64,000 bases of DNA, from the NCBI GenBank assembly GCA_030697645.1, contig JAUYPI010000006.1:76017-140016 (forward strand), read 5' to 3'. The notes beneath the pieces were generated by a model that was given only the letters and a program-made list of their open reading frames with translations, searched no databases and had not been told where the DNA came from. This document shows, one piece after another, positions 1-29,618 of this stretch (the stretch's first letter is position 1; each line of letters opens with the position of its first letter). The DNA comes from a bacterium (GTDB lineage Bacteria; Patescibacteriota; Minisyncoccia; Phycocordibacterales; VMGT01). A program made the translations under genes and the position numbers.

Positions 1-2
1 TA

Positions 3-164
3 ATGTCAAGTAACATTATCCACAGGCAGACCGAGATCATTCCTGCAGTAATGCCCGTGTCGCTCGCTGACCTTGAGACAAGAGCGTCACGGGTGGTCGG
101 GCTTGTTCACGCTGTTCAGATTGACGTGATGGACGGGTACGGTTTCGTCGTTCAAATATTTTGA
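3..164 (+). pseudogene. Truncated 5' fragment (53 codons) of a ribulose-phosphate 3-epimerase paralog
   Basis: ATG at 3. It encodes MSSNIIHRQTEIIPAVMPVSLADLETRASRVVGLVHAVQIDVMDGYGFVVQIF then a stop. This aligns to the N-terminus of the full rpe at 3869 (EIIPAIMPDSLADL...VQIDVMDGRFV). The two share a 19/20 nt stretch, cagattgacgtgatggacgg. Confidence 0.5.
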
Positions 165-251
165 ACCCTTTAAAAAACGTGGTAGGTTATAGCAAGTAGC
201 ACACTCGTTACGTTCTTTGTCTTCGAATCCTGTAACCGTAAGGAGTACAGA

Positions 252-1445
252 ATGGATCGGAAGTTTAAGCTCGGCTCAAACGAAGTTTTGCGCGAGCACG
301 TACGTACTCTCCTTACGGAGAAGGGCGAGATGCGTATTGGAAGTCTCGTGGGGGGTGTCATGTCGCGAGAAGGCCACCCGATGCCCTACGAAGGGCAGCC
401 GCGTCTCCTGCATATCATCGCTGGGATGGTTGAGAAAGGAGAAATAGCGGAGCGCTACGTCTCTAGCGAAACAAGGGGAAACAATGGGGATGAGTTTAGG
501 CGCAGGCAACACTTGGTTCGCCTCGGCAATACCGAGATAACGGCGATCGAGCCGGCGGCGGAAACGCCCTCATCCAGTGTCGGGAAAGAAAAGAAGCAAG
601 AGTATATCCTCCGCGCGGCTCTCGCGCGGGAAGAAATGCTCGACCCGCCTGCCGGAAAAAATCGAATCCTCACCGAGGCGATTCGGCTTGCGGGCTTGAG
701 CATCACTCCGGGCGGCGCGTGGTACCGAGCGTTCGACGGCCTTGTTTCCGCAGGCGTATTTCACCGAGAGGCAGATAAAGAAAACGCGGATGTGGTTCGT
801 TATTCTCTCACTGACGCTGGCCGCATAGAAGCGCGGCGTAGTGCTCCCGCGCGAGGGATCGGGCGTGGCGGTGCAGAGTCGTGTCCACCGCTCTCCCTTC
901 CCACAACCGAAACGCCGTCGGTGTCTCCATCGGAAGTACCGACGTCAACACCGAGAGCGGCACCCGAGCAGGCCGTGACGTATCTGTCTCGTCGCGCCGA
1001 GGAGCCAGTCGCGGTCTCCGAGCTCACGGCGCTCCTCAGCCGCGTATTCGTATTTGCCGATCACCTAGGGAGCATCAGTACTGCTCTGCTTCGCGAGCAC
1101 GATGAACTTCGCGCTCTTGGCGCGCATGTTAGAGAGGGTCTCAGCGCTCTCGAGGAGAAAGTGAGCGGCTGTGTCCACGCACTTGAGCGCATTGAGAAGG
1201 TCGAGGAGGCGACGGGGAGGCGCGCGACGGACGACGCGAATGCACTCGCGACTCAGCTCGACGAGCTCCGCATGAGCTTCAGTGCCGCGCGGGATACGCA
1301 TCCTCGCGATCTCGAGCTCGCCCGTGTGGTGCGCGAGTTCAAAGAAGAACTTTCTCGCCGCAGCGAGATGTTTGCGAACCTCGACGCAATGCACGCACGG
1401 CTTCAAGCGTGGGTTCTGGACGGGGACGCGCCTCACGCCACGTAA
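252..1445 (+). CDS. Hypothetical protein (397 aa) with C-terminal coiled-coil; immediately upstream of the sigma factor (43-nt gap)
   Basis: Long ORF whose codon usage matches its neighbours. There is a GGAGAG RBS before the next gene. No recognisable domain. Confidence 0.5.
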   Translation: MDRKFKLGSNEVLREHVRTLLTEKGEMRIGSLVGGVMSREGHPMPYEGQPRLLHIIAGMVEKGEIAERYVSSETRGNNGDEFRRRQHLVRLGNTEITAIEPAAETPSSSVGKEKKQEYILRAALAREEMLDPPAGKNRILTEAIRLAGLSITPGGAWYRAFDGLVSAGVFHREADKENADVVRYSLTDAGRIEARRSAPARGIGRGGAESCPPLSLPTTETPSVSPSEVPTSTPRAAPEQAVTYLSRRAEEPVAVSELTALLSRVFVFADHLGSISTALLREHDELRALGAHVREGLSALEEKVSGCVHALERIEKVEEATGRRATDDANALATQLDELRMSFSAARDTHPRDLELARVVREFKEELSRRSEMFANLDAMHARLQAWVLDGDAPHAT

Positions 1446-1488
1446 CTCGCCCCCATAGTACTCCACGCTTTACAATGAGGAGAGCACC

Positions 1489-3654
1489 ATGTCTGACTTC
1501 GATATCGTGATCGAAGGGGGACAGGTCGCTGTCCCCCAATCAACCAAATCGTCCTGCGCCGAGAGTACCGCTTTGAACGCGGGCAACCCCCTCGAGCGTT
1601 TACTGCAACGATCAGAGATACGCTCTCTTATAGCGCGTATACTCCGCGGCGAGCCGGTGACGAGCGTCGAAAAGCGCGCGGCGCTCTCCGAGGGGCAGTG
1701 CGAGGATGCGCAAGCGCGCGTGGCGCTCGCTGATCTTATCTTTATCGCTCTGCGGGGCCCCGACCGACGTCCTGATACGGATCACTCCATCCGAGAGCAG
1801 CAACCCGAGCAAGTGGCGAAGCCCTTGGCAGCGCAACCTCGACGTGGTCGTGGACGGCCGCGAGCGGAGCCACTGTTGTCTTTTGATGAGGCAGTGCGTG
1901 CCCTACCGCTCTTGACCCGTCGCGAGGCACAGGTTTTCAAACTTCGCTATGGCATTGGTGGTAAGGGCCAGAAGTCTGTCTCAGAGACTGCGTCCTACTT
2001 GGGGGTTTCGACCGCGAATGTATATACAACCGAGCGCAGCGCTTATGTGAGGCTCAAACGCTCCTCTGTCGTGCCGCAACCGGGACAACAAAGCGGTACA
2101 GAATCGGCGGATCAACGCACGCCACACACGATAGAAAGGACGTTGCCAAAGAAGCCAGAACAGAACCGCGAGCGGCATTTTCCCAGGTCCGAAAGGCGGC
2201 GTGGCCCGAGGCCAAAGGCAGACAAGCCCGTCGATGATGCACTGCGTGAGTTTGAGCAGGAGCGGCTGCGTGCGCTCGTCCTTGAAGACGCTCGCGAAAT
2301 GCATGGCGAGCGCGAGAGCGCGGCGAGAGCTTTGTTCACCGAAGCCCCGGAAGCCCGGTACGAGCCGGAGGCGTGGATTGGCACGATCAGCGCGTACTTT
2401 GCTGCCGCAGTGCGCCGTCCTCTTTTGTCGGCAGAGGAGACGTTGCAACTTTTCAAGAAGATTGATGCCGAGCGCAGCGAGATCGAGGCGCTCCTCAGCG
2501 CTCACCCTGCCGGCGCTCTCTCGCTTGAGGCTGCTCGACGGGAGCGCCCACCGTGGCACAACCTCGTTCGCTGGATGACGCTAAGGGAGAGAGAGAATGA
2601 ACCGCACACGTCTGAGGAGAAGGACAGAGACGCTCGAGATCGAGAGTTGCTCGATATGTCGGAGACGACCACTGAAGATGAGGAGACAGACGATCCAGAA
2701 GTTGCTCCAGGTCGGGTGCTCTCGCGCGCACTCGAGATACTCGAGGGACGACTTCTGAAGGATGGGTCTACGCTCGCATGCGCGGCGCTCTCCGTGCTTC
2801 TTTCTGAAGCTACGCCACGCCTCTCTCGGCTCATGGCGCTTGAGACAGAAGCCTTCGAGCACAACATGCGTCTGGTCACCTCGATTGCCTCACGGTTTCA
2901 GGGATTAGGGCTTGAGTACCTTGATCTTGTACAGGAGGGTAATATCGGCCTCATGCGGGCGATTGAGAAGTACGACTGGCGGCGAGGAATCCACCTCTCG
3001 ACGTACGCAGTGTGGTGGATTCGACAGGCGATTTTCCGAGCGGTTTGGGACAAGGGCAGCACGATCAGAATTCCGGTGCATATACGCGAGGCGACAATGA
3101 AACTACGTGCGGCTCATGCGCGCATCATGGCGCGGTCGGCAGGCGGTCGCGAACCTACGGACGAGGATCTTGCGCTCGAGCTCGATTGGGAGGTTAGCGA
3201 GGTATCCAAGGTGCGCGATACTCTCCGGCTAGACTCTACGCGCTCGCTCGATCAGCCGGTTTCGAGCCATTCGTCCGGATCCGACTCGGATGGGACGGCG
3301 CTCCTCGCGTTCATTCCTGATGCGAATGCGTCTGATGCCGGAGACCCTGTTACTGACATCGAGCGTCGAGAGGACGTAGCGCAGCTCCTTAAGACGCTCT
3401 CGCCGAGAGAGGAGAGGGTGCTGCGCCTGCATTATGGTATTGTCGAGGAGAAACCGCAGACACTCGAGCAGATTGGACGGGTTTTTGGCGTCTCGCGCGA
3501 GCGGATCCGGCAGATTGAGGTGAAAGCGTTTTCTAAATTACGACGGCGCATGCAGGCGCTCGACATCTCCTCGGAAGAGGAAATGGGAGAGAAGTTGCAA
3601 TCGTTCTTTTCTCATCCGCGCGAGGACTCGCGCGAAGCACAGAGGAGAGCGTGA
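1489..3654 (+). CDS. RNA polymerase sigma-70 family factor (RpoD-like core) with an unusual ~290-aa N-terminal extension
   Basis: Region 1.2-like PLLSAEETLQLFKKI. Region 2 LVQEGNIGLMRAIEKYDWRRGIHLSTYAVWWIRQAI. Region 4 HTH TLEQIGRVFGVSRERIRQIEVKAFSKLRR. The N-terminal part is Arg-rich and contains a second region-4-like HTH (LLTRREAQVFKLRYGIGG...SYLGVSTANVYTTERSAYVRLKR). Confidence 0.8.
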   Translation: MSDFDIVIEGGQVAVPQSTKSSCAESTALNAGNPLERLLQRSEIRSLIARILRGEPVTSVEKRAALSEGQCEDAQARVALADLIFIALRGPDRRPDTDHSIREQQPEQVAKPLAAQPRRGRGRPRAEPLLSFDEAVRALPLLTRREAQVFKLRYGIGGKGQKSVSETASYLGVSTANVYTTERSAYVRLKRSSVVPQPGQQSGTESADQRTPHTIERTLPKKPEQNRERHFPRSERRRGPRPKADKPVDDALREFEQERLRALVLEDAREMHGERESAARALFTEAPEARYEPEAWIGTISAYFAAAVRRPLLSAEETLQLFKKIDAERSEIEALLSAHPAGALSLEAARRERPPWHNLVRWMTLRERENEPHTSEEKDRDARDRELLDMSETTTEDEETDDPEVAPGRVLSRALEILEGRLLKDGSTLACAALSVLLSEATPRLSRLMALETEAFEHNMRLVTSIASRFQGLGLEYLDLVQEGNIGLMRAIEKYDWRRGIHLSTYAVWWIRQAIFRAVWDKGSTIRIPVHIREATMKLRAAHARIMARSAGGREPTDEDLALELDWEVSEVSKVRDTLRLDSTRSLDQPVSSHSSGSDSDGTALLAFIPDANASDAGDPVTDIERREDVAQLLKTLSPREERVLRLHYGIVEEKPQTLEQIGRVFGVSRERIRQIEVKAFSKLRRRMQALDISSEEEMGEKLQSFFSHPREDSREAQRRA

Positions 3655-3690
3655 AGCCCCGCGACCACATGTCGCGGGGCTTAATTTTTT
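3655..3690 (+). terminator. Rho-independent terminator after the sigma gene
   Basis: Stem agccccgcgac/gtcgcggggct with loop cacat, followed by taatttttt. Confidence 0.55.
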
Positions 3691-3868
3691 ATAGGACTTA
3701 CGCGTTTGGCGCATTTCTTTGTTGCCTTCGTCGCTCAAACCTGTCGCTCGTAGCTTCAAGTACGTCTCGCGTTTTCGCTCCTCGGCGTCTCGATACTCTG
3801 CTCAAACGCGTAAGTCCTATGTTCAATGAAGTCTGTTAAAAATGGCTCTTCGGCTGTAAGATAGATAT

Positions 3869-4585
3869 ATGCCTGCAACTCATAGTGGCGTTGAAATTAT
3901 TCCCGCCATCATGCCGGACTCGCTCGCGGACCTCCTCGAGAAGGCAGGGCGCGCTGCGGGAATCGTGCCGTTTGTACAAATTGACGTGATGGACGGCAGG
4001 TTTGTGCCGAGCGTTGATTGGCCGTACACTGGCGAGAGCGCACAAAAAGAATTTGAAGAACTCGTGCGGGGCAGTAAGACCTTGCCATTCGCCGAAAAGC
4101 TCAACTACGAAGTTGACCTCATGGTCGCGGAGCCGGAGCGCTCTGTTGCGGATTGGGTGCGCGCGGGTGTGAAGCGCGTCATTGTGCATATTGAGAGCAG
4201 TACGTATATCACGGCCGCGCTGATCAGCGGTCGCGCCGCCGCAGAGGTGCGCGGTGGCGGAGTTGAATTCGCAATCGCGCTCAATACAACGACAGAGAAC
4301 ACCGTGCTCGGCCCTTACCTCGACCATATAGATTTCGTGCAGTTCATGGGGATTGAAAAAATCGGCTACCAAGGCCGAGCCTTTGACGAGCGCGTGCTGG
4401 GGAAAATCCGCGATTTACGAGAGAGGCGCTCGGGTGTTATCATAAGTGTTGACGGCGGCGTCAATTTCGACACCGCGCCGCGGCTCATTGAGTCGGGCGC
4501 GAATCGGCTCGTCTCCGGATCAGCCATTTTCGGAAGTGACGATATCCGAGCCGCAATTGAGAAACTACAAACTTCGGCAAAGTAA
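3869..4585 (+). CDS. rpe: Ribulose-phosphate 3-epimerase
   Basis: VQIDVMDGRFVP...HVD, DLMV, SVDGG motifs. Typical ~238 aa length. Confidence 0.85.
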   Translation: MPATHSGVEIIPAIMPDSLADLLEKAGRAAGIVPFVQIDVMDGRFVPSVDWPYTGESAQKEFEELVRGSKTLPFAEKLNYEVDLMVAEPERSVADWVRAGVKRVIVHIESSTYITAALISGRAAAEVRGGGVEFAIALNTTTENTVLGPYLDHIDFVQFMGIEKIGYQGRAFDERVLGKIRDLRERRSGVIISVDGGVNFDTAPRLIESGANRLVSGSAIFGSDDIRAAIEKLQTSAK

Positions 4586-4602: not shown

Positions 4603-4920
4603 ATGAACAAGGAGCTAAAACAAGAATTTGCGCGGCTGCACATCCGTCTCGATGCCATCGAGATGGACGTTCGATCTGTTAAGTCAGACGTGTCAAACAT
4701 TAAGTCCGACGTGTCTACTCTGAAGTCGGATGTATCTACACTCAAGTCCGATGTTGCTGGGTTGCAGTACAATACTGCGGTACAGTTTCGTGAAGTGCGA
4801 AATGATCTCGCGATGCTCATGAAGAACCTCGATCCGCTTGGCGATCCAAATGAAGCGGCGGATCTTTATGGTCGCGTCAAGTATCTCGAATTGAAGCTCG
4901 GCATAGAGAGTGGTAAATAA
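4603..4920 (+). CDS. Small coiled-coil protein with four tandem heptad repeats (VKSDVSN/IKSDVST/LKSDVST/LKSDVAG)
   Basis: 105-aa ORF. It contains four 21-bp tandem DNA repeats at 4678-4761. Confidence 0.45.
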   Translation: MNKELKQEFARLHIRLDAIEMDVRSVKSDVSNIKSDVSTLKSDVSTLKSDVAGLQYNTAVQFREVRNDLAMLMKNLDPLGDPNEAADLYGRVKYLELKLGIESGK

Positions 4921-5079: not shown

Positions 5080-5967
5080 ATGCCCCACCTCCACGAAGAC
5101 AAAATAAAATTTCTAGAGAGTAAAGCGAATGAGATTCGCATTTCGCTCATTGAGTCACTTATCGCAGCTGGCTCTGGCCACACGGCAGGCCCCTTGGGCA
5201 TGGCGGATATTTTCACCGCGTTTTATTTTCACATCCTTAATCACGATCCGAAAAATCCGCTCTGGGAAGAACGGGATAGACTCATCCTTTCAAATGGTCA
5301 CATCACGCCGATCCGTTATGCTACCATGGCGCACGCGGGGTATTTTCCGATTGAGGATTTGAAAACATTGCGGAAATTCGGCTCGCCCCTTCAAGGGCAC
5401 CCCGAGCGCGAGCGTTTGCCCGCGGTCGAGACCACGTCCGGGCCGCTCGGTTCCGGACTCGGCCAGGCGGCGGGGTACGCCTACGGCGCGCGCATGGACG
5501 GCAAGAAATTTCGCGTCTATTGCCTCATGTCCGACGGCGAGCAGCAGGCGGGGAATACCTGGGAGGCGGCGATGTTTGCGGGGAATAACAGGCTCGCGAA
5601 CCTCACGGCGGTGATGGACAGAAACAATATACAAATAAACGGTCCCACAGAGGACATTATGCCCCTCGAGCCTTTGCGCGCGAAGTACGAGGCGTTCAAC
5701 TGGCATGTGATCGAAGTCGGCGGTCACGATTTTGAGGAGTTCGTCGCGGCGGTCGAGGAAGCAAAAGCAGTACTTGAAAAACCGACGCTTATCCTCGCGC
5801 ACGTGATCCCGGGCAAAGGCATCAAAGAGATCGAAGGCGACTACCGCTGGCACGGCTGTACCCCGGGAGGCGGGCCCGAGGACGTGTTTAAGAAAGCGGA
5901 GCAGGGGGCGAAGTTTTTGGAGGAACTGCGGGCGCTTGGAGAAATGATTAAAAACGCACACGTGTAG
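5080..5967 (+). CDS. Transketolase, N-terminal (TPP-binding) subunit of a split transketolase
   Basis: GSGHTAGPLGMADI, GHPE, CLMSDGEQQAGNTWEA and NIQINGPTEDI motifs. The ATG at 5080 gives a typical start; the tracked ORF start at 4966 is probably an artefactual upstream extension. Confidence 0.85.
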   Translation: MPHLHEDKIKFLESKANEIRISLIESLIAAGSGHTAGPLGMADIFTAFYFHILNHDPKNPLWEERDRLILSNGHITPIRYATMAHAGYFPIEDLKTLRKFGSPLQGHPERERLPAVETTSGPLGSGLGQAAGYAYGARMDGKKFRVYCLMSDGEQQAGNTWEAAMFAGNNRLANLTAVMDRNNIQINGPTEDIMPLEPLRAKYEAFNWHVIEVGGHDFEEFVAAVEEAKAVLEKPTLILAHVIPGKGIKEIEGDYRWHGCTPGGGPEDVFKKAEQGAKFLEELRALGEMIKNAHV

Positions 5968-6656: not shown

Positions 6657-7262
6657 ATGAACAACAAATCAGCGCCTATCTTCATCATGGTGGTCGTAGG
6701 TGTTCTTGCGATCGTCCTCCTGGGTGGAATGTATTTGTCGCGTTTTTTTTCAACGAGCAACACGGATCGTAGCGGTGCAAAAACTGCCTGCACCCAAGAA
6801 GCAAAACTCTGCCCCGACGGCACCGCCGTCGGCCGCACCGGTCCGAACTGCGAGTTTGAGGCGTGCGCAACTTCGGACAACCAACTGCCAACGACCAATG
6901 AACCGAATACGTCAGAGTGGAAAACGTATCGGAATGAAGAGTATGGGTTTGAGATGAAGTACCCGCCAACATGCCGCGTTTATTTAAATGAGGTATTCGC
7001 GAAGCCGCCTACGCCGACGTGTTTTTCCATTTTTGTGAGAGGGGAGAATAGCTTTAATCTTGAAGAGTTTCTCGAAAGTGCTAAACAAGACAATTCACTT
7101 ACGGCGTTCAAAATCGGCGGTGAGGCCGCTTACCGTATTCAAGGAACCATAAAGAAAATGGATACTATAGTGGTCAAATATAATGGTTTTGTGTACACTT
7201 TTCCGGATGCCGACTTCTTATTACGGGAGGGTATTTTATCCACCGTTAAATTCACCAACTGA
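6657..7262 (+). CDS. Membrane-anchored protein, Cys-motif family member 1 (signal-anchor TM + CTQEAKLCPDGTAVGRTGPNCEFEAC + WKTYRNEEYGFE domain)
   Basis: N-terminal hydrophobic helix IFIMVVVGVLAIVLLGG. Four-cysteine motif. Paralogous to 8159..8887 and to the C-terminal half of 9433..10368. Confidence 0.6.
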   Translation: MNNKSAPIFIMVVVGVLAIVLLGGMYLSRFFSTSNTDRSGAKTACTQEAKLCPDGTAVGRTGPNCEFEACATSDNQLPTTNEPNTSEWKTYRNEEYGFEMKYPPTCRVYLNEVFAKPPTPTCFSIFVRGENSFNLEEFLESAKQDNSLTAFKIGGEAAYRIQGTIKKMDTIVVKYNGFVYTFPDADFLLREGILSTVKFTN

Positions 7263-7266
7263 TCGT

Positions 7267-7407
7267 CTCCATGATTCTTGATTCATAATTCTTACTTCAT
7301 CCGTCATGTTCCTCAACCCATACGCAAAACTCATCCAAAACCCGTTTGATCTCGCCTCGCTCGAGAAAAAGCCGACACGGGACGGCTTCGGAAAGGGTAC
7401 GTGTTGA
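7267..7407 (+). repeat. Partial copy 1 of the tktB 5' region (native-looking leader plus 34 codons, then a stop)
   Basis: ctccatgattcttgattcataattcttacttcatccgtcATG..., encoding MFLNPYAKLIQNPFDLASLEKKPTRDGFGKGTC*. This matches the tkt C-subunit N-terminus NPFDLTALEKKPTRDGFGKG at 10365. Confidence 0.6.
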
Positions 7408-7431
7408 CATACAATTGTATAAGTATACAAT
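7404..7431 (+). promoter_or_regulatory. Sigma-70-like promoter (TTGACA-16-TACAAT) overlapping palindromes ATACAATTGTAT and TTGTATAagTATACAA; probable autoregulated toxin-antitoxin promoter/operator
   Basis: TTGACA at 7404-7409, TACAAT at 7426-7431, 7 nt before the RHH start codon. Confidence 0.4.
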
Positions 7432-7437
7432 AGTATA

Positions 7438-7696
7438 TATGGCTACCATAGACTATATCACAACCAATATTCGTCTGCCGAAGGAAGATTTAAAAGTATT
7501 GAAACAGGAGGCGTTCGCGAAAGAGCAAAGTGTGGGCGCGCTTCTTCGGTCTTTGGTTCGCGAACATTTTACGGGGCGTGCGGGGGTGCACACCAAACGC
7601 GCGCGTCGTTCCGTATGGGATCTTCCGAAGCGCGCACAGAAAACCGGTGCGCGAAATCTCGCATCCAACGTTGACCGCATCGTGTATGGAATATAA
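7438..7696 (+). CDS. Ribbon-helix-helix-type antitoxin (86 aa)
   Basis: MATIDYITTNIRLPKEDLKVLKQEAFAKEQSVGALLRSLV... Its 3' end overlaps the PIN gene by 11 nt. Confidence 0.55.
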
Positions 7697-8117
7697 CCGA
7701 AAAATATTGGTTGACGCGAACGTGTTTATTGCCCTTTTGAACAAAGATGACGCACTGCATCTCCGGGCAGTCGCTCTTTGGGCCGACATGAAGCAAGAAA
7801 ATCGCGAGCTCGTTACCTTGAATGTTGTCGCGTCTGAGGCGCTGACCGTTTTGAGCCAGCGAGGAAGCAAGGCGCTCGCGCTTGAATTGGCCGAGACGCT
7901 GTACGGTGATGGTAAAAATGATATAGAAATGGTATATGCCGACCGCATGCTCGAAGAGAGAGCGCTCGAGCGATTTCGGAGCATTCGCAGTAAAAATTTT
8001 AGTTTTGTTGACACTATCATTTTGGCGGCATTAGAGCGGTACGCCATACCGGCGCTCGCCTCGTTTGATCGCATCCTTGAGAGGTATGCGAGCGCCGGTA
8101 CCTTACGGCAGGTGTAA
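7686..8117 (+). CDS. vapC: PIN-domain toxin (VapC-like)
   Basis: KILVDANVFIAL...D...E...FVDTIILAA...D acidic quartet pattern typical of PIN. 143 aa. Coupled to the upstream RHH gene. Confidence 0.7.
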   Translation: MEYNRKILVDANVFIALLNKDDALHLRAVALWADMKQENRELVTLNVVASEALTVLSQRGSKALALELAETLYGDGKNDIEMVYADRMLEERALERFRSIRSKNFSFVDTIILAALERYAIPALASFDRILERYASAGTLRQV

Positions 8118-8158
8118 TCGAGCCCTGAATCTTTGGCACGCCTAGAAATCTCCATGGT

Positions 8159-8887
8159 ATGCACAAGCGCACCACAATTGTTTCTCTGGCACTCATCATT
8201 GCCGCCGCGGGCGGGTATGTGCTGTATGCTTCAATCATTGGAGACGTGACGCAGGACAGTGGAAGTACGCAGGCGTGCACTGAGGAAGCAAAACTCTGCC
8301 CGGATGGCAGCACCGTAGGCCGCACCGGGCCGAACTGCGAGTTTGCGGCCTGTCCCAGTCCGGAAATTATTTTTGGTAAGAAAGCCGAGGAATTATGCGG
8401 GCCGCAGCCACCGGCAGAGTGTGGGCCAGGAACAGCGCTCGGATGTTACACGAAAAGCAAAAAGTGGTCTTGTTACCCAGAAATGACTGGGTTTGATACC
8501 TCGGACTGGAAAACCTACCGGAGTGAGGAGTATGGGTTTGAAGTGCGTTACCCACAACAATGGTACAAACACGAAGCGGAGCTATTTCTTTTTTTAACTC
8601 CGACGAGCCCTGAGGTTATTACCGAATCACCTGGGATTAACTTTGTTCTGAAGCCGCTCGAAGGGCGAACAATCCAGCAGTCAGAGGATACGATAAATTT
8701 TGATCGCGAGTGCCAGCCAACAATTTTTGGAGGAAGAGGTGCGACCAAATGTCATCCGGTTATTTCTTTTGCTGGAGAAAGCTTTACATTTATTCGAATG
8801 TCAGACGGCCAGTATCTTTCAATCGGTGATTATTTAACGAGCGATCTTTCTGGCCTCATTCTCTCCACCTTCAAGTTCACCAAATGA
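8159..8887 (+). CDS. Membrane-anchored protein, Cys-motif family member 2 (TM + CTEEAKLCPDGSTVGRTGPNCEFAAC + WKTYRSEEYGFE domain)
   Basis: TM helix IVSLALIIAAAGGYVLYA. Same four-cysteine motif. Extra Cys-rich stretch CGPQPPAECGPGTALGC. Paralog of 6657..7262. Confidence 0.6.
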   Translation: MHKRTTIVSLALIIAAAGGYVLYASIIGDVTQDSGSTQACTEEAKLCPDGSTVGRTGPNCEFAACPSPEIIFGKKAEELCGPQPPAECGPGTALGCYTKSKKWSCYPEMTGFDTSDWKTYRSEEYGFEVRYPQQWYKHEAELFLFLTPTSPEVITESPGINFVLKPLEGRTIQQSEDTINFDRECQPTIFGGRGATKCHPVISFAGESFTFIRMSDGQYLSIGDYLTSDLSGLILSTFKFTK

Positions 8888-8891
8888 GCGC

Positions 8892-9050
8892 CTCCATGAT
8901 TCTTGATTCATAATTCTTACTTCATCCGTCATGTCCCTCAACCCCCAAGCAAAACTCGTCCCCAACCCTTTCGACATCGCCTCGCTCGAAAAGAAGCCCA
9001 CACGGGATGGGTTCGGGAAAGGCCTTGTTGAGGCCGGAGAGATAGAAATA
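8892..9050 (+). repeat. Partial copy 2 of the tktB 5' region (same leader; ATG at 8931; 37 native codons)
   Basis: Encodes MSLNPQAKLVPNPFDIASLEKKPTRDGFGKGLVEAGE then diverges. The leader is identical over about 45 nt to copy 1. Confidence 0.6.
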
Positions 9051-9067
9051 CATGATAAAATACGATT

Positions 9068-9436
9068 ATGCATACGATAAACCAAAAAATTAAAGAGATT
9101 ACGGACACAATCGTTAAAGAGTACCAACCGGAGAAAATTATTCTCTTTGGCTCGTATGCATGGGGCGAGCCGCATGAGTGGAGTGATGTTGACTTGCTTG
9201 TGGTAAAAGAAAGTACAAAGACGCAGCTCGAACGACGACGCGAATTGCGGCGCTTGCTTTTAGACGCAGACATGCCGCTTGATATTTTAGTGCACACAAA
9301 AAAGGAATTAGAGGACAACATCAACGAGAAACGCAATCTTTTTTTAGAAGACATAGTCCGTAATGGCCTTACACTTTACTCTGCTACGCAGGGCGAGATT
9401 GAGCTTACCCATACGCCCGCAACGCTTATTACATGA
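9068..9436 (+). CDS. Minimal nucleotidyltransferase (MNT) antitoxin-type protein
   Basis: GSYAWGEPHEWSDVDLLVV is the GSx9-13DxD nucleotidyltransferase signature. 122 aa. 4-nt ATGA overlap with the downstream HEPN gene. Confidence 0.75.
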   Translation: MHTINQKIKEITDTIVKEYQPEKIILFGSYAWGEPHEWSDVDLLVVKESTKTQLERRRELRRLLLDADMPLDILVHTKKELEDNINEKRNLFLEDIVRNGLTLYSATQGEIELTHTPATLIT

Positions 9437-10368
9437 ATGACAAAACGACACAATACGCTGGCGAGTGGTTTGAGAGAGGAGACGACGATCTCCAGGTTAT
9501 GGAAGTGCTCCTGAGGAACGAGAGTATCCCCAATGTTGTTTGTTTTCATGCGGAACAGGCGGCAGAAAAATACCTGAAAGGATTCCTGGCGCATCGTGAG
9601 CGACACGCCCGCAGGGTGCACGACTTGTCCTCACTATTGCGGGTATGCTGCGAGGTGGATGCGTCATTCAAAGCGCTACAACATGACGTAGAATTTCTTG
9701 GCGATTTGTACTTTTCGTCACGTTACCCGGACAATTACACCGTGTATCAAAAGAAGGACGCCGAGGAAGCACAGGCAGCTGCGATGCGTGTCAGGGCATT
9801 CGTCCTGGGGCGAGTAAAAGGAAACAGCGCAGATGGTGAGCCCGGCTTTGGCACCGTCGGTCTCATTGTTGGCGTTGTCGCGCTCGCGGTGTTCGTTGCT
9901 CTCGGCGCGGTCGTTTTGCGCAGCCGAGAGGGAGCGGAGGACGGCGTTGCCGCCTGCACCGAAGAAGCAAAACTCTGCCCCGACGGCACCACCGCCCTCC
10001 GCACCGGGCCGAACTGCGAGTTTGCGGAGTGTCCGCTGGTCTCCACACAAGAGGCCGGACATTTAAATGTTCAGACCGACCCCGAAATGGTTATGAGGGA
10101 GGTCGCACGACTGTTGCTTACTGCTGATAGTATTGATGCTGTGTTACCGTATTTTGACGATGGTTCTCAGTCGGTGCTCAAGCGGCGTTTTTCAGAGACA
10201 GCCCTCATGCGCTCGTTGGGTACGACTTATCAATCGGCAAAGCTTGTGGAACGAACCGATACTATTGCTACATTTGGAGTAACGGTTGCAGCGCAAGACA
10301 CGGTTTATCACGGCACGATAGTACTTTATAAGTTTGAGGATGGTAGCTGGAGGATAACTTCGCCTTGA
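9433..10368 (+). CDS. HEPN-domain protein fused to TM helix and Cys-motif extracytoplasmic domain (family member 3)
   Basis: N-terminal HEPN-like HAEQAAEKYLKGFLAHRERHARRVH (R-x5-H). Then TM GTVGLIVGVVALAVFVALGAVVL. Then CTEEAKLCPDGTTALRTGPNCEFAEC. The stop overlaps the tkt C-subunit start. Confidence 0.6.
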   Translation: MNDKTTQYAGEWFERGDDDLQVMEVLLRNESIPNVVCFHAEQAAEKYLKGFLAHRERHARRVHDLSSLLRVCCEVDASFKALQHDVEFLGDLYFSSRYPDNYTVYQKKDAEEAQAAAMRVRAFVLGRVKGNSADGEPGFGTVGLIVGVVALAVFVALGAVVLRSREGAEDGVAACTEEAKLCPDGTTALRTGPNCEFAECPLVSTQEAGHLNVQTDPEMVMREVARLLLTADSIDAVLPYFDDGSQSVLKRRFSETALMRSLGTTYQSAKLVERTDTIATFGVTVAAQDTVYHGTIVLYKFEDGSWRITSP

Positions 10369-11390
10369 ATTGTATGATTTACAGAGACGCGCATCTCGTC
10401 GAAAACCCTTTCGACCTCACCGCGCTCGAGAAAAAGCCGACGCGCGATGGGTTTGGAAAAGGCCTCGTTGAGGCTGGGGAGAAAGACCCCCGCGTGGTGG
10501 TGCTGTGCGCTGACCTTGCGGATTCCACGCGCGCGCAGTGGTTTCGGGATAAGTTTCCGGATCGCTACATCGAGCTTGGAGTTGCGGAGCAGAACATGGC
10601 GACGGTTGCAAGCGGGCTTGCGAACTACGGGAAGATTCCCTTCATGGCCTCATACGCGGCATTCAATCCGGGGCGCAACAATGAGCAAATCAGGACGACG
10701 ATCGCGCTCAATAATGTGCCGGTGAAAATCGTGGGCTCGCATGGCGGTATCAGCGTCGCGCAGGACGGTGCCACGCACCAGGCGCTCGAAGATGTGGGAC
10801 TTATGCGTATGCAGCCGAACATGGTGGTCATTGTGCCAGTGGATGCCGAAGAGGCGCGGAAGGCAACGTATGCTGCGGCGTTCAACGGGGCTCCGACATA
10901 TCTCCGCTACACGCGTGACAACCGGCCGGTGTTCACCACCGCCGACTCTCCGTTTGAGATAGGGAGGGCGAATTTGCTCTGGGACGGTAATCCCGAGGGA
11001 GACCTCGACGTCGCTGTCATCGGCTGCTCCCCGGTCCTGCACAATGCGCTCATGGCGGTTAAAGAGCTCGCCGAAGAGCGCGGACTTAAGATTGCGGTGC
11101 TGAATTGCCACACAATAAAACCGCTCGACCGCGATGCGATTGTCGGCATTGCAAAGCGAGCCGGAGCCGTTGTCACCGCCGAGGAACACCAAATCGCTGG
11201 CGGCATGGGCTCGGCAATCGCAGAACTACTTGTCCAAGAACATCCAGTACCGATTGAATTCGTCGGCGTCCACGATCGCTTCGGCCAGTCAGGAACCGTC
11301 GAGGAACTTTTCAAGGAATACGGCCTCGATGCGTCGCACATCAAGGAGGCGATCGTGCGGGTGCATGGACGAAAACAAGCCCTTAACTAA
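10365..11390 (+). CDS. Transketolase, C-terminal (pyrimidine-binding/C-terminal domain) subunit
   Basis: NPFDLTALEKKPTRDGFGKG..GSHGGISVAQDGATHQALEDVGLMR, plus a C-terminal domain. The first ~13 codons differ from the two upstream fragment copies. The tracked start is TTG at 10365; the true start may be the ATG at 10374. Confidence 0.85.
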   Translation: MNCMIYRDAHLVENPFDLTALEKKPTRDGFGKGLVEAGEKDPRVVVLCADLADSTRAQWFRDKFPDRYIELGVAEQNMATVASGLANYGKIPFMASYAAFNPGRNNEQIRTTIALNNVPVKIVGSHGGISVAQDGATHQALEDVGLMRMQPNMVVIVPVDAEEARKATYAAAFNGAPTYLRYTRDNRPVFTTADSPFEIGRANLLWDGNPEGDLDVAVIGCSPVLHNALMAVKELAEERGLKIAVLNCHTIKPLDRDAIVGIAKRAGAVVTAEEHQIAGGMGSAIAELLVQEHPVPIEFVGVHDRFGQSGTVEELFKEYGLDASHIKEAIVRVHGRKQALN

Positions 11391-29404: not shown

Positions 29405-29618
29405 TTTGTAATAAAAATCAACAACAGAATAAATATCTGTCCCGTATGGGTTAGGTGAGCACCTTGTCGGATGGCAGGTTGCTGGAGCGTCATCGGGCCT
29501 ATTCCCTCGGCTCACTCTTGATACTTATTCTGTTATAAATGTACCTGATACAAATGTACCAAAACGTATATCGCGCCGGCAATGTTTAGTAGTTTTAGGA
29601 AACAATAAAATCAAACTG

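Follow-up and report, generated by a model that had tools for sequence, protein, structure and literature searches.

A 64,000-nucleotide stretch of a Patescibacteriota genome (contig JAUYPI010000006.1; the whole stretch is called the window here) opens with a broken start of the ribulose-phosphate 3-epimerase gene, rpe, and carries a complete rpe 3860 nt further along the same strand, with a two-gene operon between the two. The arrangement is well supported as a genuine insertion scar, holding orphan regulatory cargo within a pentose-phosphate operon of the Patescibacteria. We favour, with moderate confidence, the reading that the broken start is a recombination scar, left by homology-anchored integration at the 5' end of rpe. 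A recombinase gene is missing from the inserted unit, the cargo is missing from the relatives, and the broken start did not come from the gene that now stands beside it.

The broken and the intact rpe

The remnant is an open reading frame (ORF) of 53 codons on the forward strand (3-164), annotated at NCBI as hypothetical protein Q8R39_01640. Its codons 7-45 (nt 21-137) are homologous to Rpe, and its last eight codons and stop are sequence unrelated to Rpe. Remnant residues 7-45 agree with residues 5-43 of the intact protein at 25 of 39 positions (64%; BLASTP E 2e-14). Counted across all 53 residues the identity is 47%, close to the figure of about 50% given in an earlier note on this DNA, which was made from the sequence alone. 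A complete (beta/alpha)8 barrel of some 210-240 residues is not present in the remnant, only the equivalent of residues 5-43 of 238, and judged by its sequence the ORF is a gene remnant and not an enzyme. Q8R39_01640 ought to be re-annotated as such. The intact rpe (3869-4585, plus strand) gives a full-length match to the PF00834 profile (positions 4-198 of 198; 97.1 bits with a cutoff of 21.1; E 1.2e-27). A total of 1114 homologues were found for its product, the nearest species being 77% identical, and the identities to the three closest lineages are 77, 74 and 72%. By these homologues the genome falls within Patescibacteria/Parcubacteria and is Kaiserbacteria-like.

Remnant positions 21-137 and intact positions 3881-3997 form a direct repeat pair, on the same strand and 3860 nt apart; homology is confined to these two intervals, and no other repeats were found between the junction regions. 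The near-identical DNA stretch to which the earlier note had drawn attention is real. The exact 17-mer ATTGACGTGATGGACGG is common to the remnant (120-136) and the intact gene (3980-3996), and it lies in a conserved block, TGTTCAGATTGACGTGATGGACGG (113-136, plus strand), which encodes VQIDVMDG and matches 3973-3996 at 22 of 24 nucleotides with a spacing of 3860 nt. This block forms a direct repeat with 3973-3996 and is the putative crossover point; the VQIDVMDG codons are equally conserved in relatives that lack the insertion. The Rpe homology of the remnant ends at nt 137 whichever family member serves as query, or possibly at about nt 149 with a 3-nt indel, and no further Rpe homology was found in any frame from there up to nt 3800. 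Just beyond the junction, a small near-palindrome read from the sequence, GTTCAAATATTTTGAAC, covers the remnant's stop codon (150-166, plus strand).

Origin of the remnant

The N-terminal block of Rpe is conserved throughout the family. Across 36 residues, random family members average 58% identity to the remnant and 62% to the resident protein, and the remnant and the resident, at 67%, barely exceed this background. For this reason, a specific link to the resident gene cannot be read from the 64% identity or from the 17-mer. In the codon alignment the two share 61.1% of nucleotides, and their 42 differences fall 7/10/25 by codon position (chi-square ~13, p ~0.001 for departure from an even spread). 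Synonymous sites have reached saturation (pS 0.86), pN is 0.23, and all 12 invariant or near-invariant N-terminal family positions (12/12) are intact in the remnant. Its nucleotide identity to three other lineages (P0004, P0003 and P0002) is 71.3, 68.5 and 65.7%, in each case above that to the resident. A local duplicate or decaying pseudogene of the resident rpe was rejected on account of the third-position bias, the saturated synonymous sites and the greater closeness to other lineages. On these alignments the remnant does not derive from the resident gene. Up to its truncation, or to a time shortly before it, the remnant belonged to a working rpe in a different lineage of this clade.

Gene order in the relatives

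In all three closest lineages rpiB is immediately upstream of rpe, apart from a small PDDEXK_3 gene (88 aa, L005 9698-9964) that stands between rpiB and rpe in the third, the closest sister species; ppsA precedes rpiB in two. The rpiB-rpe junction is thus variable in a sister species too (L005), there without an rpe remnant. Downstream, the order of coiled-coil gene, tktN, DUF5674 and, further on, tktC is the same in the window and in the three relatives. Collinearity of the DNA between window and relatives starts at 3889-3892, a few codons into rpe, and continues for more than 9 kb; left of 3889 no sequence is shared with the three closest relatives. The non-syntenic region reaches at least 6.2 kb to the left of rpe, and the remnant lies inside it, not at its edge. 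Both rpiB and ppsA are absent from the 64-kb window and from its left extensions.

Neither the cargo nor an rpe fragment was found in the three closest lineages or in 80 more distant genomes, and a second Rpe piece accompanies none of the other rpe loci (0/89). Because rpiB and rpe are adjacent in the relatives, the cargo is orphan and collinearity begins only at the start of rpe, the two-gene operon is an insertion relative to the relatives. The synteny comparison thereby bears out the earlier note, which had described the operon as inserted. The contrary case that the note envisaged, relatives with the sigma operon and no fragment, does not occur, as no relative has the sigma operon.

The cargo and the spacer before rpe

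The interval between the rpe copies holds, in order, a 397-aa ORFan, a 721-aa sigma-70 gene, a terminator and an inverted-repeat spacer. The earlier note had placed a truncated rpe start at 3-164, followed by a 397-aa gene, a sigma-70 gene, a terminator and the full rpe at 3869, and each of these lies where it said. The first cargo gene (252-1445, plus strand) has an AAGGAG ribosome-binding site upstream. Its product is predicted to contain two winged-helix-like segments, a Pro/Ser/Thr-rich linker and a long C-terminal coiled coil. A single-sequence AlphaFold2 (AF2) model shows the secondary structure H-H-H-E-E twice and then long helices, with a mean predicted local distance difference test (pLDDT) score of 50.6, too poor to base a fold search on. 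The protein belongs to no Pfam or PHROG family. Its sole match in a library of 5.8 billion clusters and in an exhaustive HMMER scan of 1.84 billion representatives is itself, two marginal HMMER matches being uninformative, and no homologues were found in GTDB representative genomes, IMG/VR, or phage or plasmid collections. It is not a recombinase, and its C-terminal half contains no Tyr.

The second cargo gene (1489-3654, plus strand) encodes a 721-aa sigma-70-family protein. Its Sigma70_r2 (67.9 bits; 6.6e-19) and r4 (78.9 bits; 2e-22) matches are both above the curated cutoffs, the r3 match is weak and below its cutoff, and the protein also matches phrog_351 (E 2.6e-74). The C-terminal 270 aa are primary-sigma-like (regions 2-4). 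The N-terminal 440 aa are orphan, with an extra region-4-like helix-turn-helix (aa 135-190), Arg/Lys-rich low-complexity stretches and no match in IMG/VR. The best non-self match has 48% identity across 32% of the length (the C-terminal third) and is to primary sigmas of unrelated phyla; in regions 2-4, nothing among the 5.8 billion clusters exceeds 48% identity. We considered and rejected the protein as the clade's primary (group 1) RpoD orthologue: it has no close orthologue in the sister species, and regions 1.1/1.2 are unrecognisable, with no match to PF00140 or PF03979. It is probably not the housekeeping sigma of the clade, for in that case a close orthologue would be expected in the sister species, which has a TktN of 95% identity. 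On these similarity searches the cargo is accessory and orphan.

An intrinsic terminator (3654-3682, plus strand; 12-bp stem with 9 GC pairs, and a T-run) closes the operon. The spacer that follows (3691-3820, plus strand) is bounded by a perfect 18-nt inverted repeat, ATAGGACTTACGCGTTTG, with arms at 3691-3708 and 3803-3820 and 94 nt enclosed, and it folds into a long stem (z -5.8 for 3650-3870). The arm sequence has two matches where 0.04 are expected, and this inverted repeat occurs once in the window. No counterpart of the spacer was found in the relatives, and an Rfam search of 1-4000 gave no match. Contigs from the Logan assemblies of runs SRR13727529 and SRR26726066 both break at 3711-3721, just inside the inverted repeat.

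Independent assemblies and the left flank

The same layout is present in two NCBI metagenome-assembled genomes (MAGs; contigs of 8.3 kb and 140.7 kb) and in Logan assemblies of two SRA runs. The NCBI protein ids for the arrangement in the Q8R39 MAG are MDP3735112-15 / MDZ4285105-08. Because the identical order and junctions recur across these four assemblies, the layout is not an assembly artefact.

The left flank was recovered from three contigs (L001-L003), up to 2.5 kb beyond window position 1. No longer ORF runs into the remnant in this flank, which disposes of the concern, raised in the earlier note, that the fragment might be part of a longer gene in another frame. Upstream of the remnant are a scrap resembling the 3' end of a tRNA or tmRNA, orphan genes of 107 and 439 aa, and an IS30-like remnant; no rpiB remnant or promoter similarity was found there. 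The scrap, GGGGTTCGATTCACCTTGGCTCCACCA (L002 2466-2532, minus strand), lies ~35-65 nt left of position 1. It comprises a T-arm, an acceptor strand, CCA and a complementary GGAGCC 5' strand, with no D or anticodon arm. A full tRNA or tmRNA beside the remnant was rejected, as ARAGORN calls none, a tmRNA-like cmscan match is weak (E 0.0085) and the fold is no better than that of shuffled sequences. The scrap is possibly that of an old att site. The IS30-family transposase remnant (L002 216-711) is frameshifted into two ORFs, covering profile positions ~199-274 and 293-342 of 344. After it come the 439-aa orphan, which is secreted and Pro/Ser/Thr-rich, and then the 107-aa orphan on the opposite strand.

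The neighbouring tkt locus

The transketolase gene is naturally split in this clade, with tktN at 5080-5967 and tktC at 10365-11390. Between them is a cassette hotspot (6657-10368) with three paralogous secreted Cys-motif genes, an RHH-PIN cassette and an NTase-HEPN cassette. The hotspot also contains two remnant tktC 5' ORFs, at 7306-7404 (~33 tktC codons) and 8931-9047 (~38 tktC codons). The earlier note had seen in rpe a mirror of the tkt locus. The likeness is real, yet the tkt locus is not a plain succession of fragment, cargo and intact gene, but a split tktN/tktC pair with cassette arrays and two tktC remnants. Both remnants keep the ancestral start MSLNPxAKL, seen in outgroup TktC, together with the native upstream gene end and spacer, and the start of the intact tktC is remodelled and overlaps the HEPN fusion gene. 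From the retained ancestral start and native upstream sequence it follows that the tktC remnants are native 5' ends, and that the working tktC start came with the insert.

Compared with its counterpart in a sister species (L005 14732-14848), the remnant at 8931-9047 has dS 0.68, dN 0.09 and a ratio of ~0.14, values on a par with those of the intact tktC start; either selection acts on it as a small ORF or it is gene-converted. Two sister-species contigs with flanks 99.9% identical differ by a BrnT-CopG cassette and one repeat copy, and the junction of this polymorphism is a hybrid with its crossover inside a 44-nt identical block. The hybrid junction is direct evidence, from the sister species, that homologous recombination at short conserved blocks remodels the tkt cassette array. 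That the two tktC remnants end at different codons (~33 and ~38) argues against a single att core.

These results bear on two further proposals of the earlier note. Its suggestion that the rpe remnant came from a donor genome rather than from the resident gene holds as to the resident, which is not the source. As between a donor piece and the old native end, the tktC remnants favour the opposite of the note's guess, so that the remnant may be the native end. As for one insertion mode at both genes, the layouts match, but neither a core common to the two loci nor a recombinase was found, and the tktC remnants break off at different codons.

The hotspot has its counterparts in the sister species (L005 12500-16500 and L006 2600-5400). 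The gene at 9433-10368 joins a HEPN domain (aa 11-124), in frame, with a transmembrane segment and one copy of the secreted Cys-motif protein, and this fusion is also found in the sister species (384-419 aa).

Route of insertion and alternative explanations

Under homology-anchored integration, a DNA of 3.86 kb would have recombined into the 5' end of rpe, at or just past the VQIDVMDG block. The incoming piece would have carried the winged-helix/coiled-coil gene, the sigma-70 gene, the terminator, the structured spacer and its own first ~45 rpe codons. The product would be a truncated rpe start, the cargo and a complete rpe, with neither the epimerase nor the downstream pentose-phosphate operon losing its function. 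The two rpe starts would come from different lineages of the same Parcubacteria clade, each having been part of a working gene until the event. The joining may have proceeded by a RecA-type crossover in the conserved block on one side with an illegitimate joint on the other, or by single-crossover integration of a circle bearing an rpe 5' piece. We prefer this route to a dusA-type integrase because there is no recombinase and the tktC breakpoints vary, because the repeat is no more conserved than in uninterrupted relatives and rpe is not a recurrent target, and because homologous recombination is active next door and Patescibacteria can be naturally competent. No integrase or transposase was found in 138-3868 or across the remaining 60 kb of the window; Pfam and PHROG scans of every ORF in 1-3900 and of the left flank returned sigma-factor domains and the IS30 remnant only. 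Natural competence, with integration of DNA through homologous recombination, is described for Saccharibacteria, which are Patescibacteria (PMC10633639), and one-sided homology-facilitated illegitimate recombination for competent bacteria (PMC3240628).

Several observations weigh against this preference. The identical block of 17 nt is short for a RecA-type crossover, and its position at the very end of the homology is also what an att core would look like. The GC of the cargo is host-like and its GC3 (0.63-0.64) matches that of host core genes, and tetranucleotide usage alone deviates (z ~3). A chimeric 5' end in the intact rpe was sought and rejected, as no discontinuity in divergence marks one: identity does not change abruptly along the gene, and each of the four operon genes shows a star-like relationship among the three lineages. 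Searches for a donor allele or another copy of the cargo were all negative, in JGI metagenomes (with the remnant peptide and a degenerate GLVHxVQIDVMDG DNA pattern) as well as in GTDB representatives, IMG/VR, and phage and plasmid collections. Moreover, the left neighbour of the remnant is not the expected native rpiB, so that at least one further rearrangement is needed or the remnant arrived as a passenger. Such an extra event on the left flank, be it an earlier insertion, an IS30-related rearrangement or tandem accretion, is the main weakness of every model.

One alternative is site-specific integration of a dusA-island-like element by a tyrosine integrase, now lost or acting in trans, through an attP that mimics the start of rpe and has its core within the VQIDVMDG codons. 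The old 5' end would have been left as attL, and a new 5' end with its upstream region supplied at attR. Rpe and DusA are both TIM barrels, and the first strands of the barrel are the part replaced. The layout is identical to that of dusA islands, with a remnant, a replacement 5' end and imperfect direct repeats (PMC4482086). The 22/24-nt direct repeat lies exactly at the homology boundary, and the tRNA/tmRNA-3'-like scrap and IS30 remnant suggest a left flank rich in mobile elements, with possible tandem accretion. We nevertheless consider this route unlikely, as an integrase is missing from the 3.86-kb unit and from the 2.5 kb on its left and the 60 kb on its right, coding conservation may fully explain a repeat that is equally conserved in insertion-free relatives, none of the 89 other loci uses rpe as an integration site, and the tktC remnants end at different codons. 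If the element does excise site-specifically, its circle would carry a junction of TTTGTACAAATTGACGTGATGGACGG with GTACGGTTTCG (also written with GTACAAATTGACGTGATGGACGG in place of TTTGTACAAATTGACGTGATGGACGG). The predicted empty site, a chimera of remnant 5' and resident 3' sequence joining GTTCAGATTGACGTGATGGACGG to CAGGTTTGTGCC, encodes a protein that is absent from a 15-billion-protein collection.

A larger island offers another route, one in which a complete foreign rpe or a piece of donor chromosome arrived between rpiB and rpe and was later truncated by deletion, its closeness to the resident gene reflecting only where the island landed. This accords with a non-syntenic region of at least 6.2 kb left of rpe that has the remnant inside it, with an upstream flank that is not rpiB, and with a divergence pattern that shows descent from a working gene of another lineage. 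It nevertheless needs a coincidence of orientation and of 3.7-kb proximity to the one homologous gene of the genome, as well as a truncation that falls precisely on the block of highest conservation. The other 190 codons have left no trace, and the remnant is free of disabling changes, which argues for a recent truncation; we hold such a passenger to be quite improbable. A local duplicate of the resident rpe start that then decayed neutrally, or a chimera assembled from co-occurring strains, would give the same orientation and close proximity, and MAG contigs can be chimeric at conserved sequence. Against both stand the 7/10/25 differences, a pS of 0.86, the 12/12 conserved residues kept, a remnant less similar to the resident than to three other lineages, and identical junctions in four independent assemblies. 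In addition, what lies to the right of the block in the remnant copy is unique cargo and not rpe, which a k-mer bridge cannot make. Duplication or chimerism is effectively refuted.

A broader proposal, which we regard as doubtful, extends homology-anchored integration to both loci. Parcubacteria would capture accessory cassettes without an integrase, by recombination at short, ultra-conserved blocks close to the start of essential operon genes such as rpe and tktC. Each incoming piece would then bring a replacement gene start, and an integron-like cassette array would arise through homology alone. The native start, once displaced, would persist as a small translated ORF, driving the new cassette or co-opted by it, a reading that would fit the selection-like conservation of the tktC remnant across species.

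Other features of the window

Directly downstream of rpe, at 4603-4920, a gene encodes a small coiled-coil protein whose heptad-like repeats read SDVS(N/T)(I/L)K. It is kept after rpe in all close relatives at 60-85% identity, and seems to belong to the rpe-tkt operon as a fixed part. The rest of the window codes for core functions, for example dnaX, dnaE, topA, uvrD, parB, murG, mraY, atpD and gltX. A SAM-I riboswitch (29430-29527, minus strand; 54 bits, above the gathering score) lies upstream of minus-strand genes, and an extra tRNA at 27986-58 is called by Rfam and not by ARAGORN.

Implications

The locus indicates that a bacterium with a streamlined and probably symbiotic way of life can take up a regulator module into an operon of central metabolism and still keep the essential gene. 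The remnant provides a datable marker of horizontal transfer between sister lineages. Considered together with the tktC remnants, it raises the possibility that homology-anchored, integrase-free cassette capture may be common in Patescibacteria. The cargo itself, an orphan long sigma-70 with a duplicated region-4-like domain and an orphan DNA-binding-like protein, is a candidate for lineage-specific reprogramming of transcription.

Comparison with known systems

The kind of feature seen here is already known, and the scar as such fairly ordinary; the integrase-free context and the parallel, apparently long-lived tktC remnants are of moderate note. Homology-facilitated or Campbell-type integration is known from transformation in the laboratory, in Acinetobacter, Streptococcus, Pseudomonas and E. 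coli, and to our knowledge it has not been documented in Parcubacteria. The rpe locus resembles it in having a one-sided homology anchor, foreign DNA at the other joint, no recombinase of the element's own and variable breakpoints. Unlike the laboratory cases, the anchor would be homeologous (~61-71% identity), with near-identity over only 17-24 nt. A truncated copy, an insert and an intact copy, in this order, are the classic product of single-crossover or one-sided homology-anchored integration (PMC3240628).

In dusA islands and prophages, an integrase targets the 5' end of the gene and leaves a remnant and a replacement 5' end with imperfect direct repeats (Farrugia et al. 2015, PMC4482086). 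The rpe site is likewise the 5' end of a housekeeping TIM-barrel gene, with the old start as a remnant and the gene kept intact, and it has imperfect direct repeats at both junctions in direct orientation. Unlike those islands, the rpe unit has no integrase or other recombinase, is tiny (3.86 kb, two cargo genes) and has rpe as its target; its repeat is indistinguishable from ordinary coding conservation, and its site is not recurrent (0/89 loci). A further likeness is to the tktC remnants of the window and of the sister species (L005, L006 and L008), which share with the rpe remnant an ORF with its own start, a cargo cassette with a promoter of its own, an intact gene and coding-type divergence. 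The tktC cargo, unlike the rpe cargo, holds toxin-antitoxin pairs and paralogous secreted-protein genes. The tktC remnants also keep their native upstream neighbour, and one of them is old, being shared across species, whereas the rpe remnant has lost its neighbour and is unique to this genome.

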